This document shows positions 15 to 57,369 of a stretch of 61,970 nt of DNA, piece after piece (position 1 is the first letter of the stretch; each line of letters begins with the position of its first letter). A program made the position numbers and the translations under genes. Origin of the DNA: an uncultured Bacteroidales bacterium (lineage in GTDB: Bacteria > Bacteroidota > Bacteroidia > Bacteroidales > UBA3663); NCBI GenBank assembly GCA_937899265.1, contig CALBPV010000002.1, positions 1 to 61,970 of the forward strand. The letters run 5' to 3'. Below the pieces are notes generated by a model. That model did not search any database. It was not told where the DNA came from and was given only the letters and a program-made list of their open reading frames with translations.

Positions 15-311
15 TCACACGCGATTATGCAGGTGACCCGTAAGTTTGTTGACCATCACGAAGTCAATGTCGGCATCAGGCTCGCTGACCACGTCGGTCA
101 CACCCCACTCGAAGGCCTGCTTCAAATTGTCGTCCAGACCGTCGGCCAGATATGCCTTGCCTATCAGCAGCACTGTTGGTTCGAATTTGTCTGTACCTTC
201 ACCATACTCTGTCAGGGGGTCAGCTACCGAGTTGTCGCTGTTGTCTGAGCACGATGCCATTCCTAACGCGAATGGGACAAGCATAATAAGGTTTCTAAAC
301 AGTTTTCTCAT
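15..311 (-). CDS. small lipoprotein of unknown function (98 aa)
   Basis: ATG at 309-311 (rc). Signal peptide ends in the lipobox LGMAS-C. The mature part is acidic. No family recognised. Confidence 0.55.
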   Translation of the reverse strand: MRKLFRNLIMLVPFALGMASCSDNSDNSVADPLTEYGEGTDKFEPTVLLIGKAYLADGLDDNLKQAFEWGVTDVVSEPDADIDFVMVNKLTGHLHNRV

Positions 312-496
312 CGCCTATAGAAATTTTTGTTGTTATTAAGGTTGGTTCTATTAATTCCACACGGTGTAGTTTGATATTGAGAGTGACACGAATACAGGTC
401 AGTGTCACACAAAAACCACAGAAATTCTTGCAGCAACGTTAATTTATTCTTTACCTTATATGAGGAAATATCTATCCCGTATGAGGGAATGTCCTA

Positions 497-537
497 ACGA
501 GGTCCGTACAGATCCGATGCCATGCACGGACCTCGTG
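497..537 (-). terminator. 11-bp-stem hairpin downstream of the Mfa2-like gene
   Basis: ACGAGGTCCGT-N18-ACGGACCTCGT lies about 50 nt past the stop at 584. There is no clear U-run. Confidence 0.3.
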
Positions 538-583
538 ATTAGAATCTAATTACAGTGCATAATAGCCTTTGGTCTTCTTATGA

Positions 584-1483
584 CTAAAAACTCATGTGCG
601 TTTCGCCGGCCCAGTCGGTATTCACCGTGACACCGGTCACCGAAGTAGATGACGAGCTGGAGCCGTTGAAGAAGGTGCCCGTGAGCCACGTGATATGGTT
701 CTGCTGCATGGGTACGTCGAACTCGCGCACATAGAGTTCATTACCACTGGCATCAAGGGCCGTCACCTTCATGGCGATGTTGTCCGACTGCTCGTGCAGG
801 AAGGTGTAGAGGTCGAACTGCGTCTGGCTACCGTCTGTCACATCGAACGTCACCGTCTGCTTACTATTCACGCTGCCCAAACCAGTGTATGCATTGAATG
901 CGCCCGAACCGCCGGTATAGTAGAACTGCATCTTCTTCACGTCAGCAGGAATGTCATCGGTAATCACAAAGCGACAGAGTGCTATGATGCGTTCGAGCGT
1001 CACGTCAACCTCCCAGGATTCTTCAGGTTCGATGGTGATGTCGCCACTCGAAAGGAACGTGTCGGTATAGCCCTGAGCATTGGTGAACGATATCTTCAGA
1101 GGGTTCGTTGATGTGGGGTTGCCGTTGGCGCTGTGGCCCACAACCACCAGCTGGTAGTCGCCCTCGTCAAGTTGGAACGAAGCCGTGCCGAACCCCGCAT
1201 TATCCGAAGTCTGGTTGACCATCTTCGCCCGCGAACCGTCCGTATTGTATATCAGGAAGTTCAGTCGGGTACACACTTCTGAGGCTGGCTGAGCGGCACG
1301 CGTCAGGCTGCCAAACGGTGTCTTCTCTATTTGGAACACCCGCACTCGCAGGTTGCCGTCAGGTTCTCCTGTCGTCTCATCGTCGGAGAAAATCGCCTTT
1401 TCACAGGACGTGAAGACCAGAGCGGTCAGCACGGACATCATCAGTGCTATGAAGGCACTGAACGAAAATATTTTTCGTGTCAT
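584..1483 (-). CDS. FimB/Mfa2-family (type V pilus anchor-like) lipoprotein, 299 aa
   Basis: Lipoprotein signal (LVFTS-C). Beta-rich sequence resembling Bacteroidales Mfa2/FimB proteins. ATG at 1481-1483 (rc). Confidence 0.6.
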   Translation of the reverse strand: MTRKIFSFSAFIALMMSVLTALVFTSCEKAIFSDDETTGEPDGNLRVRVFQIEKTPFGSLTRAAQPASEVCTRLNFLIYNTDGSRAKMVNQTSDNAGFGTASFQLDEGDYQLVVVGHSANGNPTSTNPLKISFTNAQGYTDTFLSSGDITIEPEESWEVDVTLERIIALCRFVITDDIPADVKKMQFYYTGGSGAFNAYTGLGSVNSKQTVTFDVTDGSQTQFDLYTFLHEQSDNIAMKVTALDASGNELYVREFDVPMQQNHITWLTGTFFNGSSSSSTSVTGVTVNTDWAGETHMSF

Positions 1484-2681: not shown

Positions 2682-4625
2682 TTATTTGGCGGGAGTATCG
2701 AGGACCTCATATTTGGAGTGGTTGCTCTTGTACTCTGGCACAATCTCCTTCATCTTGCGGACGGTGTCCATATCATCGTAGTTGTGGGCGATGGCGATGA
2801 GGTCGCAAATCTCGCGGTCGGCCTCTGTATATTCGTACTCCCGCACCTCGGCAATCTTGATTTTCTCGTGGAAGGTGGGTTTGACGTGCTCCTGCTCGTT
2901 AAGCACTTCTTCGTAGAGTTTTTCTCCGTCGCGGAGACCTGTGAAAGTAATCTTGACGTTATCGGCTCCGGAAAGGAGTATCATGCGGCGGGCCAAATCG
3001 ACAATCTTGACGGGGTTGCCCATGTCGAAGACGAATATCTCTCCGCCCTTGCCCATGACTCCTGCCTCCAAGACGAGTTTGCAGGCCTCGGAAATCAACA
3101 TGAAGTAGCGGATGATGTCGGGATGGGTGACTGTGAGGGGGCCACCTTTTTTGAGCTGCTCCTTGAAGAGGGGGATAACCGAGCCGTTGGAGCCGAGCAC
3201 ATTGCCGAAACGGGTGGTGACGAACTGTGTCGAACCCTTGACCGAACCTTCTGTTATCGCTTTGTTGAGCGACTGGACGTAAATCTCACAGATGCGTTTG
3301 GAGCATCCCATGACGTTGGTGGGATTGACGGCCTTGTCGGTGGAAACCATCACGAACTTCTTGACCCCATACTTGACGCTGAGGTCGGCAATGACCTTGG
3401 TGCCATAGATGTTGTTGTAAACGGCCTCGGAGGGATTGTCCTCCATCATGGGGACATGTTTGTAGGCCGCTGCGTGGAAGACATAGTCGGGACGGAACGC
3501 TCCGAAGATGTGCTCCATGCGGTCGTGGTCGGTAATGCTGGTGACCACCGTCTCGGACGGAATGTAGGGGAAATCGCGTTTCATCATGAGACGGACATCA
3601 TGCTGGGGTGTCTCGGCCTGGTCTATCAACATCATGGCAGCCGGATGGAATTTGGCCACCTGACGCACCATCTCGGAGCCGATGGAGCCGGCAGAGCCGG
3701 TGATGAGAACCTTGGTGCCCTTGAGCATCTTCTCGACCTCTTCGAGGCTGATTTTGATTTCATCGCGGGGCAGTAGGTCTTCGATGCTGACCTCCTTGAG
3801 ACGGATTTGCGAGAAATCGTCGTCGGTGCCGGTCCATTCCCGGGCACTTTGAGCCATGTATATCTTCACCCCCTCGGAGATGAGCATGTCTTGGAACTCC
3901 TGTTCGGCACGGAAATTCTTCATGCGATAGGGCGAAACGATGAGACCCCGTATGTGGCGTTGGCGGATAACGGAGCGAAGGTCATCGTCCTTGGTATAAA
4001 CCGGCTCCTGCAAAAGCGTGCTGCTGGCGAGTTTGCTGTCATGGGAGATGAAACCGCGCAAGAGATATTTGGCGGGCTTCTGACTGCGGAGGTTCTTGGC
4101 GATGCCTACACCGCCTGTCATGGCACCGTAGATAAGCACCGGGACGGCATTGGAATCGCGGGTGGAGATTTCGAACAAAGTCTTCACCAAGACACGCACG
4201 CCTCCCATCAGGAGGGTCGCCAGGATGTAGAGGGTGACCAAAACGCGCGGGGGCAGCCAAGTGAACCAGGCAGACAGACCCGATTCCTCCCAGAAAGGAA
4301 GAAGGATGTAGTGGAGGGCCAATGTCACGAGGAGGGCTGTGAGATTGGCAAATGCCACATGCTGAAGATCCGCGAACGAAGAATAACGGACAATACCCGT
4401 GTAAGTGCGGAAAATCCGGAATGTCACGACACTGACAACAATGGCTATCAGCAGGCTGTGGGTCAACGAGTAGAAATTGACCGTCATCTGATATCCGCCG
4501 TTGAACAGATAATAGGCGAACAACCCTGAAAACCAAATAATCAGAACATCAAGCAAGAGAATGCACCAATAGGGCAGTGCACTCTTGCGGAAATACCAAT
4601 TAAAAAATTGTTTCAATTGCTTCAT
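2682..4625 (-). CDS. polysaccharide biosynthesis protein, CapD/WbpM-type membrane-anchored nucleotide-sugar 4,6-dehydratase (647 aa)
   Basis: Start MKQLKQFFNWYF (ATG 4623-4625 rc). Four N-terminal TM helices, then a Rossmann motif LITGSAGSIGSE and the SDR core YKHVPMME / STDKAVNPTNVMG. Confidence 0.85.
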   Translation of the reverse strand: MKQLKQFFNWYFRKSALPYWCILLLDVLIIWFSGLFAYYLFNGGYQMTVNFYSLTHSLLIAIVVSVVTFRIFRTYTGIVRYSSFADLQHVAFANLTALLVTLALHYILLPFWEESGLSAWFTWLPPRVLVTLYILATLLMGGVRVLVKTLFEISTRDSNAVPVLIYGAMTGGVGIAKNLRSQKPAKYLLRGFISHDSKLASSTLLQEPVYTKDDDLRSVIRQRHIRGLIVSPYRMKNFRAEQEFQDMLISEGVKIYMAQSAREWTGTDDDFSQIRLKEVSIEDLLPRDEIKISLEEVEKMLKGTKVLITGSAGSIGSEMVRQVAKFHPAAMMLIDQAETPQHDVRLMMKRDFPYIPSETVVTSITDHDRMEHIFGAFRPDYVFHAAAYKHVPMMEDNPSEAVYNNIYGTKVIADLSVKYGVKKFVMVSTDKAVNPTNVMGCSKRICEIYVQSLNKAITEGSVKGSTQFVTTRFGNVLGSNGSVIPLFKEQLKKGGPLTVTHPDIIRYFMLISEACKLVLEAGVMGKGGEIFVFDMGNPVKIVDLARRMILLSGADNVKITFTGLRDGEKLYEEVLNEQEHVKPTFHEKIKIAEVREYEYTEADREICDLIAIAHNYDDMDTVRKMKEIVPEYKSNHSKYEVLDTPAK

Positions 4626-52893: not shown

Positions 52894-53172
52894 CCCGGAG
52901 AGTCCGGAAAGCCCGGAGTTTCCGGAGTTTCCGGGAGTTTCCGGGAGTTTCCGGAGTTTCCGGAGATTCCGGAGTTTCCGGAGTTTCCGGAGATTCCGGA
53001 GTTTCCGGGAGTTCCGGAGTTTCCGGAGATTCCGGAGTTTCCGGGACTTCCGGAGTTTCCGGGGGTTCCGGAGATTCCGGGAGTTCCGGGGGTTCCGGAG
53101 ATTCCGGGAGTTCCGGGGGTTCCGGAGTTTCCGGGAGTTCCGGGGTTTCCGGAGAGTCCGGAGGTTCCGGGA
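52894..53172 (-). repeat. ~30-unit 9/10-bp TCCGG(A/G)RNT array (family member, minus orientation)
   Basis: Fills almost the whole gap between the convergent ispE and ABC permease genes. Confidence 0.95.
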
Positions 53173-55434: not shown

Positions 55435-55506
55435 TGAGTGTATAATTGAATCTGATTTTTATAATGTGGAATTGCCCGAAACAAAGACATGGACAAAATC
55501 CAGCCG

Positions 55507-55538
55507 CAAATATAGCGTTTTTTTATGAGACAGCCAAA
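55507..55538 (-). promoter_or_regulatory. Bacteroides-type promoter TTTG-N20-TATATTTG for the ABC operon
   Basis: On the + strand, CAAATATA at 55507-55514 and CAAA at 55535-55538. Confidence 0.5.
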
Positions 55539-55580
55539 TTTTTTGCGGAAAAAGTGGCGAATGTTCCCTGTTTGCCATAA

Positions 55581-55870
55581 AAAGTGCCAAAAGGTCGCCT
55601 ACATTTTGGGCAAGCCTTTGGCAGTTGCGGAAATCGCCATCGATTATCGATGGACCCAAAAGAAAGTGCCAAAAGGTCGCCTACATTTTGGGCAAGCCTT
55701 TGGCAATTGCTGAAATCGCCATCGATTATCGATGGAACCAAAAGAAAGTGCCAAAAGGTCGCCCAGAATCTGGGCAAGCTTTTGGCAATTGCGGAAATCG
55801 CCATCGATTATCGATGGACCCAAAAGAAACTGCCAAAGGCTTGCCCGGATTTTGGGCAAGCCTTTGGCAG
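55581..55870 (-). repeat. 3.5 x 82-bp tandem repeat, each unit carrying two palindromes (REP/REPIN-like)
   Basis: Units start at 55581, 55663, 55745 and 55827. P1 is TGCCAAAGG..GCC-N7/8-GGGCAAGCCTTTGGCA, a perfect 17-bp stem at 55830-55870. P2 is CCATCGAT-T-ATCGATGG. Confidence 0.9.
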
Positions 55871-55880
55871 TTTTCTTCTC

Positions 55881-56864
55881 TCATTCTGCCAGCCACTCGA
55901 CCAGCACATTGTTTCGCATCATCTGCCAGCGGGCGGAGTCGTGAGGCAGCGGAGCGTAAGCCCTGTGGCGAGCCTCCGCTTTGGCACGCAAGGCGTTGTC
56001 GGTCCGCGTGACGACGGTGGAGTCTTCCGCTGTCCCGGCAGTCGGTTCCAAAAGGAGGAGACGACCCAAACTGCACGTTTCGAAATAAACGCCGCCGGGC
56101 TTGAAGTAGCGCTCGTGGGGAGACCCCTCGGGCGGGAAGCCGTCTTTCAGGACGATTACCATGGGGAACCGGTTCTCTCGAACGGCTCGCATGATGAACT
56201 GTTCGCCGTGGCTGATGGCACCGCTGTAGGTCACGCAGCCCGTTCGCGCAGCCTGATGGAGGACGAGGTTGCATTGCGACTCTATCTGTTCGTCGGTCAG
56301 AGAACGGGAACATTGCACCGCCTGTCGTTCCGGATAGTCCAACAGGAAGGGGTTGCCCATCGCGGAGAAGGTGAGCGTGTGACCGCCGCGCGTCACCGGG
56401 AGGTTTCTCCTCAGGTGGAAGAGGCCGGGGTTGTGGCGTTTGACGAGTGCCCGGCGCGGGTTGTCGTGCACGTACTCTATCATGCTCTTGAGCTGTCCTT
56501 TGCGCGAAAGCGTGCGGATGAACGGGGGCTCGAAATCCAGCGCATGGTCTTTCAGCCACCACCCTTGTCGCATACCGCGCGCCAGCTGTTTGATGCTCTC
56601 GCCGATGTCCGACTTCACGTAGATGAGCACGTGGATATGGTCGGGCATCATGCTTACGGCGAGGAACTGGATGTTGGGGCGCAGTAGCAGGGTGTGGTTC
56701 ATCTGGGTGAGCGCATCGATGCCAAGCTGGGAAAGGGCGGTACGGGGGTTGACCTTGTCGTCAACGAGGGTGCCCAGCAGCGGACGGCGCGGTCGCAGCA
56801 CGAAGGTGAGGTGGTAGATGCCTACGCCCTTCCAGATGTCTTCGCGTTTTTTCCAATGGAACAT
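55881..56864 (-). CDS. HUH/Y1 tyrosine transposase-like protein (IS200/RAYT-like) with ~160-aa C-terminal extension, 327 aa
   Basis: HUH motif PDHIHVLI (His76/His78) and Tyr motif YVHDNPRRALV (Tyr131). Start at ATG 56864 (MFHWKK). The upstream part of track ORF 55881-57371 is repeat-encoded. Confidence 0.7.
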   Translation of the reverse strand: MFHWKKREDIWKGVGIYHLTFVLRPRRPLLGTLVDDKVNPRTALSQLGIDALTQMNHTLLLRPNIQFLAVSMMPDHIHVLIYVKSDIGESIKQLARGMRQGWWLKDHALDFEPPFIRTLSRKGQLKSMIEYVHDNPRRALVKRHNPGLFHLRRNLPVTRGGHTLTFSAMGNPFLLDYPERQAVQCSRSLTDEQIESQCNLVLHQAARTGCVTYSGAISHGEQFIMRAVRENRFPMVIVLKDGFPPEGSPHERYFKPGGVYFETCSLGRLLLLEPTAGTAEDSTVVTRTDNALRAKAEARHRAYAPLPHDSARWQMMRNNVLVEWLAE

Positions 56865-56950
56865 AGGGGGGGATGTTATAGAGGGTGAATGCCCGTAGAA
56901 TGGGGCGGATGATGGAGGATGGAGGATGGAGAATAGAGGAGCGAGGATGG

Positions 56951-56985
56951 CAGATAATAATCTGCCCATTATAAACGGGGAGAGA
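56951..56985. repeat. hairpin module A: GGATGGCAGAT-AATA-ATCTGCC + ..AACGGGGAG
   Basis: Stem at 56957-56963 / 56968-56974. Direct repeat of module B. Confidence 0.8.
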
Positions 56986-57035
56986 CGAACCGCGACAACA
57001 ACCACGGGGCGAGGCACCACAGCGGGCACCACCGC

Positions 57036-57145
57036 GCGAGCCGCGACCGGGCGAGCGCCACGAGGGCGAGCCGCGACCGGGCGAGCGCCACGAGGGCGAG
57101 CCGTGACCGGGCGAGAGCCACGAGGGCGGGCCGCGACCAGGCGAG
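57036..57145. repeat. ~3.7 x 30-bp GC-rich tandem repeat (GCGAGCCGCGACCGGGCGAGCGCCACGAGG)
   Basis: Units start at 57036, 57066, 57096 and 57126. Confidence 0.9.
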
Positions 57146-57149
57146 ATGT

Positions 57150-57210
57150 CGCCCGTCTCCCCCGTTTGTAGGATGGGCAGATTAAAATCTGCCCGACATA
57201 GACGGGGGGC
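57150..57210. repeat. hairpin module B: extended imperfect palindrome around GGGCAGAT-TAAA-ATCTGCCC
   Basis: Stem at 57175-57182 / 57187-57194. The outer C5GT / ACG6 arms also pair. Confidence 0.8.
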
Positions 57211-57369
57211 GAGGCTCCACGAGACAAGAGCCGCGACCGGGCGAGAGCCACGAGACGCGGGCCACGGAGGGGCGAGGCTCCACGAGGGGCGAGAGCCACG
57301 AGGGCGAGCCGCAACGAGAGCCGCGCACACCAGAGGCGGAGCCGCCGCTGTCGCCACCTCCCCTGCTGC

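Follow-up and report, generated by a model that had tools for sequence, protein, structure and literature searches.

A putative RAYT-like HUH nuclease fused to a DprA-like domain, with a co-evolving hairpin at its own locus, in rumen and gut Bacteroidales

We analysed a 61,970-nucleotide stretch of DNA from an uncultured Bacteroidales bacterium (GTDB lineage UBA3663; contig CALBPV010000002.1), here called the window, and in it a gene at 55881-56864 of the minus strand. Its 327 codons, plus a stop, are predicted to specify an HUH/Y1 domain fused to a DprA-like domain. Judged by sequence comparison, the product belongs to a large, unnamed family of two-domain proteins which occurs mostly in rumen and gut Bacteroidales. 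The family is accompanied by a short hairpin which co-evolves with the protein and is nearly confined to the gene's own locus. Probably, the enzyme is a hairpin-specific nuclease-ligase of single-stranded DNA (ssDNA) that resembles the REP-associated tyrosine transposases (RAYTs; REP, repetitive extragenic palindrome). The DprA-like module would hold ssDNA and may recruit RecA. Y1 HUH enzymes, i.e. the RAYTs and the TnpA proteins of IS200/IS605, serve as the model of single-strand DNA transposition and as tools for DNA tagging. For the loading of RecA on incoming ssDNA, the model is DprA.

Two motifs had led the initial annotation to propose a RAYT-like N-terminal half, the HUH motif PDHIHVLI and, 53 residues past H78, the Tyr motif YVHDNPRRALV, which begins at Y131. 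Both were found as described. H76-I-H78 is encoded at 56631-56639 (the minus strand reads CAT ATC CAC) and Y131-V-H-D-N135 at 56460-56474 of the same strand, with the Y131 codon at 56472-56474. In an alignment of 30 diverse relatives with 30-63% identity (A1) the catalytic residues are invariant (H76, H78, Y131, N135 and R138). The alignment also has LWE.GY.D, the kept W[EQ] motif of the broader RAYT family. The Y-x3-N-P form of the Tyr motif is that of class-2 (RAYT-like) TnpA-Y1 proteins (PMC6006769).

A full-length AlphaFold2 model of the protein (P0001) was built from the alignment (pLDDT 94.5, pTM 0.87) and has two domains. When the N-terminal part was compared with the PDB by Foldseek, ISDra2 and IS608 TnpA and E. 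coli TnpA-REP (4er8) were matched with E values of 3e-5 to 1.6e-4. IS200 was also among the Y1 matches, at E up to 1e-3; the target-normalised TM scores were 0.5-0.59 and the probability was 1.0. The Y1 fold expected from the motifs was thereby confirmed at the level of the model. The family profile matched ISDra2 TnpA among PDB sequences at E=5e-5; a direct search of PDB sequences with the protein itself gave no meaningful match. The Y1_Tnp affiliation that had been anticipated was borne out in part. Pfam Y1_Tnp (PF01797) matched at E=7e-4, yet with 20.1 bits the match stayed under the 23-bit gathering threshold; 18 of the 30 relatives match this model at E<=0.01, also sub-threshold. The NCBIfam model REP_Tyr_transpos (NF047646) gave 23.5 bits (E=4e-5), below its equivalog cut-off of 80 bits, and the NCBIfam IS200 model gave E=0.047. 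Fold search and family profile together indicate that residues 1-149 (56418-56864, minus strand) are a predicted, intact class-2 (RAYT-like) HUH/Y1 ssDNA nuclease-ligase domain.

The C-terminal extension of about 178 residues (150-327; 55884-56417, minus strand) had been noted as a Rossmann-like, nucleotide- or DNA-binding fold without assignment. The fold was recognised correctly, and structure prediction with fold search now assigns it to the DprA/Smf family. Modelled alone (pLDDT 96.2), the domain has an alpha/beta Rossmann-type (SLOG) fold with an N-terminal beta-hairpin and extra C-terminal helices. The top 14 Foldseek matches of the isolated domain in the PDB were all ShosA (8zva) or DprA (4ljk, 5mll, 3uqz, 3maj), with E values of 4e-4 to 2e-2, probabilities of 0.98-1.0 and query-normalised TM scores of 0.40-0.46. 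The ShosA antitoxin was the best match; other SLOG-fold proteins appeared only at E>0.2. Similarly, the C-terminal part of the full-length model matched DprA of H. pylori, S. pneumoniae and R. palustris and the DprA-like antitoxin ShosA.

At the sequence level the relationship is more distant. Between the domain profile and H. pylori DprA the motifs are collinear (GN.fLLd.P...V..SR...GaVlVSp versus VGDTKLLDTPLKVAIIGTRR...GAVIVSG; E=0.15), and hhalign against a Bacteroidales DprA profile yielded E=1.1e-3 over 120 columns. The Pfam DprA model PF02481 did not match residues 150-327 at E<=10. Stand-alone relatives of 153-173 amino acids match the domain profile (A2) at E=3.5e-13 to 1.5e-9. One of these, of 153 amino acids (L101), also matches PF02481 (E=3.7e-6; 26.7 bits, cut-off 29.6) and the PADLOC model PsyrA (E=2.5e-12). 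The stand-alone relatives thereby provide a transitive sequence link to PF02481 and PsyrA. Their genes lie at 3992-4453 of locus L101, 4237-4722 of L102 and 4160-4681 of L103. In L101 and L103 they are directly behind a gene for an Eco57I-like N6-methyltransferase (~780 amino acids); L103 also contains an NYN-domain-like gene, named from sequence reading. L101 and L102 have a Y1 transposase-like gene within 2 kb of the stand-alone relative.

DprA has two signature motifs, G-S/T/A-R and F-x-x-R-N, and Arg52 of H. pylori DprA is an ssDNA-binding switch residue, mutation of which lowers ssDNA affinity ~315-fold (PMC3950713). In our protein C185-S186-R187 is located at motif 1. R187 aligns to Arg52 and is at least 90% conserved among the 30 relatives, as are S218 and K255; the Gly is not kept. 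At motif 2 (F/L/Y-x-x-R-N/D) just the Asn aligns (N319, invariant) and the Arg position is variable. E221 is the acidic residue at the DprA GID position. It is invariant in the 30 relatives together with G170, L174, P256, G267, L270 and N319. Since the Arg of motif 1 is kept but motif 2 is reduced to the Asn, we assign the domain by model and sequence as a divergent, non-canonical member of the DprA/Smf superfamily. It shares with DprA/Smf and ShosA/PsyrA the Rossmann-type fold and the collinear motif residues R187, E221 and N319. It differs from DprA by the degenerate motifs, by the absence of the flanking SAM and winged-helix domains, by its additional hairpin and helices and by its fusion to a nuclease. 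The canonical DprA genes of the same genome are on contigs C35 and C72.

The two halves are encoded in one stop-free minus-strand reading frame, and the N-terminus of the product is MFHWKKRED. The relatives P0002 (98% identity) and P0003 (63%) begin at the same MFHWK; therefore, the start was fixed at 56864. A longer in-frame upstream reading frame, to 57371, was rejected as the start: it reads through GC-rich repeats, and the relatives start at MFHWK. The initial annotation had considered that a frameshift might have joined two genes. This is ruled out by the compact model and by the architecture, which is kept in more than 1000 relatives. Conserved residues occur in both halves, and therefore both are under selection.

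Clustered at 90% identity, 1380 relatives were counted; most are unnamed, a few are 'hypothetical' and two are called 'transposase'. Precomputed Pfam domains are absent from all 1380. At 50% identity an exhaustive HMMER search gave 1076 clusters, of which 541 had E<=1e-10. The named sources are metagenome-assembled genomes (MAGs) of rumen and gut Bacteroidales, i.e. Paludibacteraceae, Prevotella, Bacteroidaceae and Muribaculaceae. Thirteen of 25 genomes of the window's genus have the family, with zero to several divergent paralogs per genome, and the C-terminal domain proved rare in the phylum (6 of 301 evenly drawn genomes). One copy, on a 4.2-kb contig binned as Ruminococcus flavefaciens of the Bacillota (L024, CADBAC010000185.1), is 98% identical to a copy in a Bacteroidales MAG, which is either mis-binning or transfer.

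The DNA around the genes was compared in 83 loci, 80 from species-representative genomes, two from metagenomes, and the window. The locus search was run with a 10-sequence alignment, because the diversity of the 30-sequence alignment did not permit a pattern scan. A recurrent hairpin, GC[A/G]GAT-N3-ATC[T/C]GC, was present in 88 instances in 47 of the 83 loci; about 0.4 were expected by our own estimate. It has a stem of 7-8 bp, a loop of 3 nt and a RACGG motif on its 3' side. It is found in three places: upstream of the gene, at the stop codon, or in frame within the segment that separates the HUH motif from the Tyr motif. In the window's clade the stem is GCAGAT/ATCTGC (A-type). There, one hairpin lies 64-175 nt upstream of the start and another in frame within the gene at nt 300-455, which corresponds to the loop that connects the HUH motif with the Tyr motif. 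The A-type hairpin often belongs to a tandem repeat of 48 or 61 nt, and in the gene these repeats are translated (..PQMPSAEEYKQMPKGV..). In other clades the stem is GCGGAT/ATCCGC (G-type) and is positioned at the stop codon, often with more copies or arrays upstream or downstream. The 3' motif, (A/G)(A/G)ACGG(G/A)AC, follows the hairpin at 7-9 nt. Of 52 G-type hairpins, 44 had its core RAC[AG]G no more than 22 nt away (background 8%), mostly on the sense strand of the gene.

The hairpin co-evolves with the protein. Among 74 distinct sequences, 32 have A-T and 42 have G-C at the variable stem position; one pair further out, C-G, G-C or T-A is found in 55 of them. On a maximum-likelihood protein tree the hairpin type changed 11 times; the mean with shuffled labels was 36, and none of 200 shuffles gave so few changes. 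A single well-supported clade of 18 holds all 15 A-type loci, the window among them. The hairpin is also nearly confined to the gene's own locus. In eight genomes (~25 Mb) 24 of 25 GCGGAT-N-ATCCGC hairpins were at the gene locus, with 0 control matches. Six A-type genomes contained 1-14 copies of the GCAGAT hairpin (control, 0-1), and many of these copies are spaced in pairs as at gene loci. Within genes the repeats are variable. The in-frame hairpin repeat number differs between genes that are 98% identical, and near-identical genes differ by whole 48-nt repeats; the intragenic array is therefore evolving fast. Such whole-number differences were seen between L024 and L068 and among the proteins P0017, P0022, P0054 and P0117, with protein lengths of 346-436 amino acids. 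RAYTs of subclass 2.4 have been described with REPs inserted in frame between their HUH and Tyr motifs (PMC6006769).

In the window two such hairpins were identified upstream of the gene, both on the plus strand and thus antisense to it. The first (56949-56984) reads GGCAGAT-AATA-ATCTGCC followed by CATTATAAACGGGGAG and is 85 nt upstream of the start codon; its ssDNA fold has -9.9 kcal/mol (z=-3.2). The second, GGGCAGAT-TAAA-ATCTGCCC followed by GACATAGACGGGGGG, is an extended imperfect palindrome (57151-57215, core at 57176). It lies within a 60-nt palindrome with an ssDNA fold of -20.2 kcal/mol (z=-5.3), and none of 200 shuffles was as good. Common to both are the core, extended arms (CGTCT.TA...GGGCAGAT) and a 3' A(A/G)ACGGGG motif (AAACGGGG); the core hairpin and the RACGG motif are those of the relatives. 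Five loose GCAGAT..ATCTGC matches exist genome-wide; only these two adjoin the gene or have the stem GGCAGAT..ATCTGCC. Between and beyond them are GC-rich 15/30-nt tandem repeats (GCGAGCCGCGACCGGGCGAGCGCCACGAGG and variants; 57021-57323) without a copy elsewhere in the genome. Comparable arrays of the hairpin plus GGGACGAGG adjoin the genes of relatives. The initial annotation had placed the gene amid palindromic repeats. This is correct, with an 82-nt array on one side (55499-55872) and the hairpins and 30-nt GC-rich array on the other (56949-57323). The family evidence ties the two hairpins to the protein, but not the downstream 82-nt array.

These findings are best explained by the RAYT-like, hairpin-specific nuclease-ligase proposed at the outset, which we regard as the probable reading. 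The enzyme would bind the family hairpin when the DNA is single-stranded, e.g. in the lagging-strand template. Y131 would form a 5'-phosphotyrosine link, with a metal held by H76, H78 and N135, and cutting and rejoining would take place near the hairpin. The DprA-like domain may grip the flanking ssDNA; it would probably also make the protein a dimer and might recruit RecA, as do DprA and ShosA (PMC3950713; PMC12961424). The outcome would be changes in copy number and an occasional relocation of hairpin repeats and of the gene unit. This would make a REPtron-like unit with the gene and its adjoining hairpins as the main components. In the window the cognate sites would be the hairpins at 56949 and 57176.

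Several points weigh against this reading. That the protein cleaves the hairpin is deduced from their association alone. The sequence models support the Y1 assignment weakly, with the protein below the curated Y1_Tnp and RAYT thresholds, and residues 150-327 fail to match the Pfam DprA model. Because motif 2 is kept only as an Asn, it is not certain that the C-terminal domain binds ssDNA, and SLOG-fold domains can bind nucleotide ligands instead of ssDNA. The strict hairpin pattern is missing from 37 of the 83 loci, though several bear other hairpins. Both window hairpins are 5' of the gene and antisense, unlike those of most relatives. A sense-strand hairpin at the stop codon, as in many relatives, would also fit a role at the RNA level.

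The comparison with RAYTs (TnpA-REP, class 2 TnpA-Y1; Quentin et al. 2018, PMC6006769) has two sides. Shared are the HUH/Y1 fold, Y-x3-N-P and the W[EQ] motif, the occurrence of one or a few divergent copies in a genome, and the patchy distribution. Also shared is a gene flanked by cognate, co-evolving hairpins, i.e. a REPtron (in the family at 47 of 83 loci; in the window two hairpins, both upstream). In-frame hairpin insertions between the HUH and Tyr motifs are a likeness to subclass 2.4. However, DH[ILF]H with Y[VI]xDNP and a length of ~330 amino acids fits none of the 12 described subclasses, and the ~180-residue DprA-like C-terminal domain is not described there (PMC6006769). The guide tetranucleotide GT[AG]G at the 5' foot of the hairpin is absent; instead, the flanks are variable and RACGG is conserved on the 3' side. 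The score against the curated RAYT model is 23.5 rather than 80 bits. The palindrome is not dispersed in tens to hundreds but has 1-14 copies per genome (two in the window's genome), mostly at gene loci. Hence the family follows RAYT/REPtron logic minus the dispersed REP population. Full-text literature searches that paired DprA or SLOG with HUH, IS200 or transposase returned no description of the fusion, the literature coverage being incomplete.

An active insertion sequence is the alternative that survives best, although we think it rather unlikely. The family would be a new, long-transposase branch akin to IS200/IS605 that moves the gene and its hairpin ends by 'peel and paste' of a single strand. 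In this view the hairpins would mark the left and right ends, and the role of the DprA-like domain would be to assist where the DNA is coated by SSB. Best matches of residues 1-149, by structure and by profile, are the TnpA proteins of IS608 and ISDra2, which have a hairpin-based DNA partner. Three loci, each from a different species-representative genome (L053, L054, L055), share a ~1.5-kb unit with 97-98% identity in unrelated flanks. A ~65-nt sequence that forms a hairpin borders the unit on either side in direct orientation, and these ends are also found alone elsewhere in the same genomes. G-type relatives have one hairpin upstream and one at the stop codon. The gene is patchy in the genus (13 of 25 genomes) and non-syntenic: the ABC transporter operon downstream of it in the window is conserved in 13 relatives, and in all 13 the gene is absent beside the operon. 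A search for empty sites in the genus defined no insertion ends, because the upstream side differs in all 13 relatives and the genus is too divergent (62-69% amino acid identity in full-length alignments). Some lineages are syntenic, e.g. the L041 group. Near-identical units in unrelated flanks, together with varying repeat numbers, mean that units change context and that the arrays are dynamic. The proposal of the initial annotation that this is a domesticated repeat-handling enzyme is therefore not established; moreover, the hairpins are nearly confined to the own locus and not dispersed like REPs.

Copy number argues against the insertion sequence. The window's genome and each of four others tested have one full-length copy, and multi-copy genomes carry divergent paralogs, not identical copies. 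The initial annotation had taken the gene for a single-copy one and not for a multicopy insertion sequence, which holds: in the 2.35-Mb draft genome it occurs once, bar one divergent paralog. This paralog, on contig C109 (26385-27833, minus strand; 388-1836 of locus L002), has 482 amino acids and is 35-39% identical over two aligned stretches. Between its HUH and Tyr motifs a low-complexity, in-frame insert (SPRLHD repeats) contains two hairpins, CCCCGCCT-CCA-AGGCGGGG, with an 8-bp stem and a 3-nt loop, unlike the window hairpin. A 48-nt tandem repeat (x3) follows its stop. Hairpins near both unit ends in differing flanks are found in L053, L054 and L055, but not in the window, where both are on the 5' side (the second hairpin of this clade is within the coding region), nor in L024 and L068. 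The latter two are 98% identical. Their breakpoints, at the coding start and ~150 nt past the stop, fall inside the coding start and in a promoter-like stretch, not at hairpins. Further, the Tyr motif is Y-x3-N as in RAYTs and not Y-x3-Q as in IS200, the protein is 2.4 times longer than IS200/IS605 TnpA, and clustering of the neighbours in 80 loci revealed no tnpB partner.

A bolder proposal goes beyond the RAYT-like reading: the family may be an undescribed class of Y1-HUH elements with a built-in RecA-loading module of the DprA type, in which hairpin-specific nicking of ssDNA is coupled directly to strand invasion by RecA. We consider this doubtful at present. If true, the gene unit and the hairpin arrays would be moved or remodelled with the assistance of recombination, a process distinct from peel-and-paste transposition as well as from REP dissemination.

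It appears quite improbable that the enzyme is the RAYT of the 82-nt double-hairpin repeat downstream, which is essentially what the initial annotation implied. The array (55499-55872, ~4.5 units with two hairpins each) begins 9 nt past the stop codon and would be an arm of a REPtron; the ~16 or more other loci would be REPs spread by the enzyme. The repeat is indeed dispersed, with copies on at least 16 contigs, and it is species-specific, since it is absent from the 25 related genomes searched. Its inner hairpin, CCATCGA-N3-TCGATGG (15 occurrences, control 0), is built to the same geometry as that of the family: the stem has 7 bp and the loop 3 nt, with GA/TC beside the loop. In the relatives L073 and L075 arrays also start right after the stop codon. 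However, the stem is CCATCGA and not GGCAGAT, the 3' RACGG motif is absent, and 82-nt units are found neither upstream of the gene nor near the C109 paralog. The genome has many unrelated intergenic repeat families. It also contains an ordinary short RAYT, though with its own distinct REP. A tie between the 82-nt array and the enzyme is possible but unproven. The short RAYT is at the start of contig C19 (~nt 60-590, plus strand) and is of the Bacteroidetes kind (NHLH ... YIHNNP, like subclass 2.6). Its REP, GGTCGGATTGCAAATCCGACC, stands right after the stop and occurs eight times on seven contigs (control 0); a CGGAT..ATCCG hairpin is in frame within this RAYT gene.

Finally, a defence or sensor enzyme, in which a DprA/SLOG-like domain senses foreign ssDNA or a nucleotide signal (cf. 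ShosA/PsyrA and the SLOG domain of ThsA) and activates the HUH nuclease when ssDNA of a phage or a conjugative element enters the cell, is very improbable: the best fold match is ShosA, which binds ssDNA and RecA (PMC12961424), and stand-alone relatives match PsyrA and sit behind methyltransferase genes, but PADLOC matched neither the protein nor two relatives, a conserved neighbour or defence-island context was absent in 80 loci, and a hairpin that accompanies the gene and co-evolves with the protein speaks for a specific self site, not for foreign DNA.

The surroundings of the gene vary. In the window it is flanked by the ABC transporter operon and by a gene for a surface protein of the type IX secretion system, neither of which is conserved beside the family elsewhere. 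All-against-all clustering of the flanking open reading frames of the 80 loci yielded no conserved neighbour, the largest shared cluster being six syntenic loci. Large surface proteins as regular neighbours, suggested by the window and by contig C12 of genome G013, were rejected, as a neighbour of at least 700 amino acids was present in 16 of the 80 loci only. At the latter site (L104, G013:C12:64000-81000) three divergent paralogs within 12 kb are interleaved with an Endonuclease_1 gene and with surface proteins that contain Big_3 and Listeria-Bacteroides repeats. Farther away in the window a dense array of short-period repeats (52897-53141) is situated between ispE and the ABC operon. Rfam, run on 52-62 kb of the window, returned sub-threshold matches to microRNA families only, which are spurious and fall on hairpin-like repeats including this array.

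The fusion of a Y1 HUH domain with a DprA-like domain thus is natural and widespread, with more than 1000 protein clusters. The association with the hairpin explains the variable in-frame repeat inserts of these proteins. Because the hairpin is short, well defined and co-evolving and is found nearly only beside the gene, protein and site form a clean pair. This opens a way to the questions of how Y1 enzymes read hairpins, what additional domains contribute, and how RAYT-like genes persist without a large REP population.

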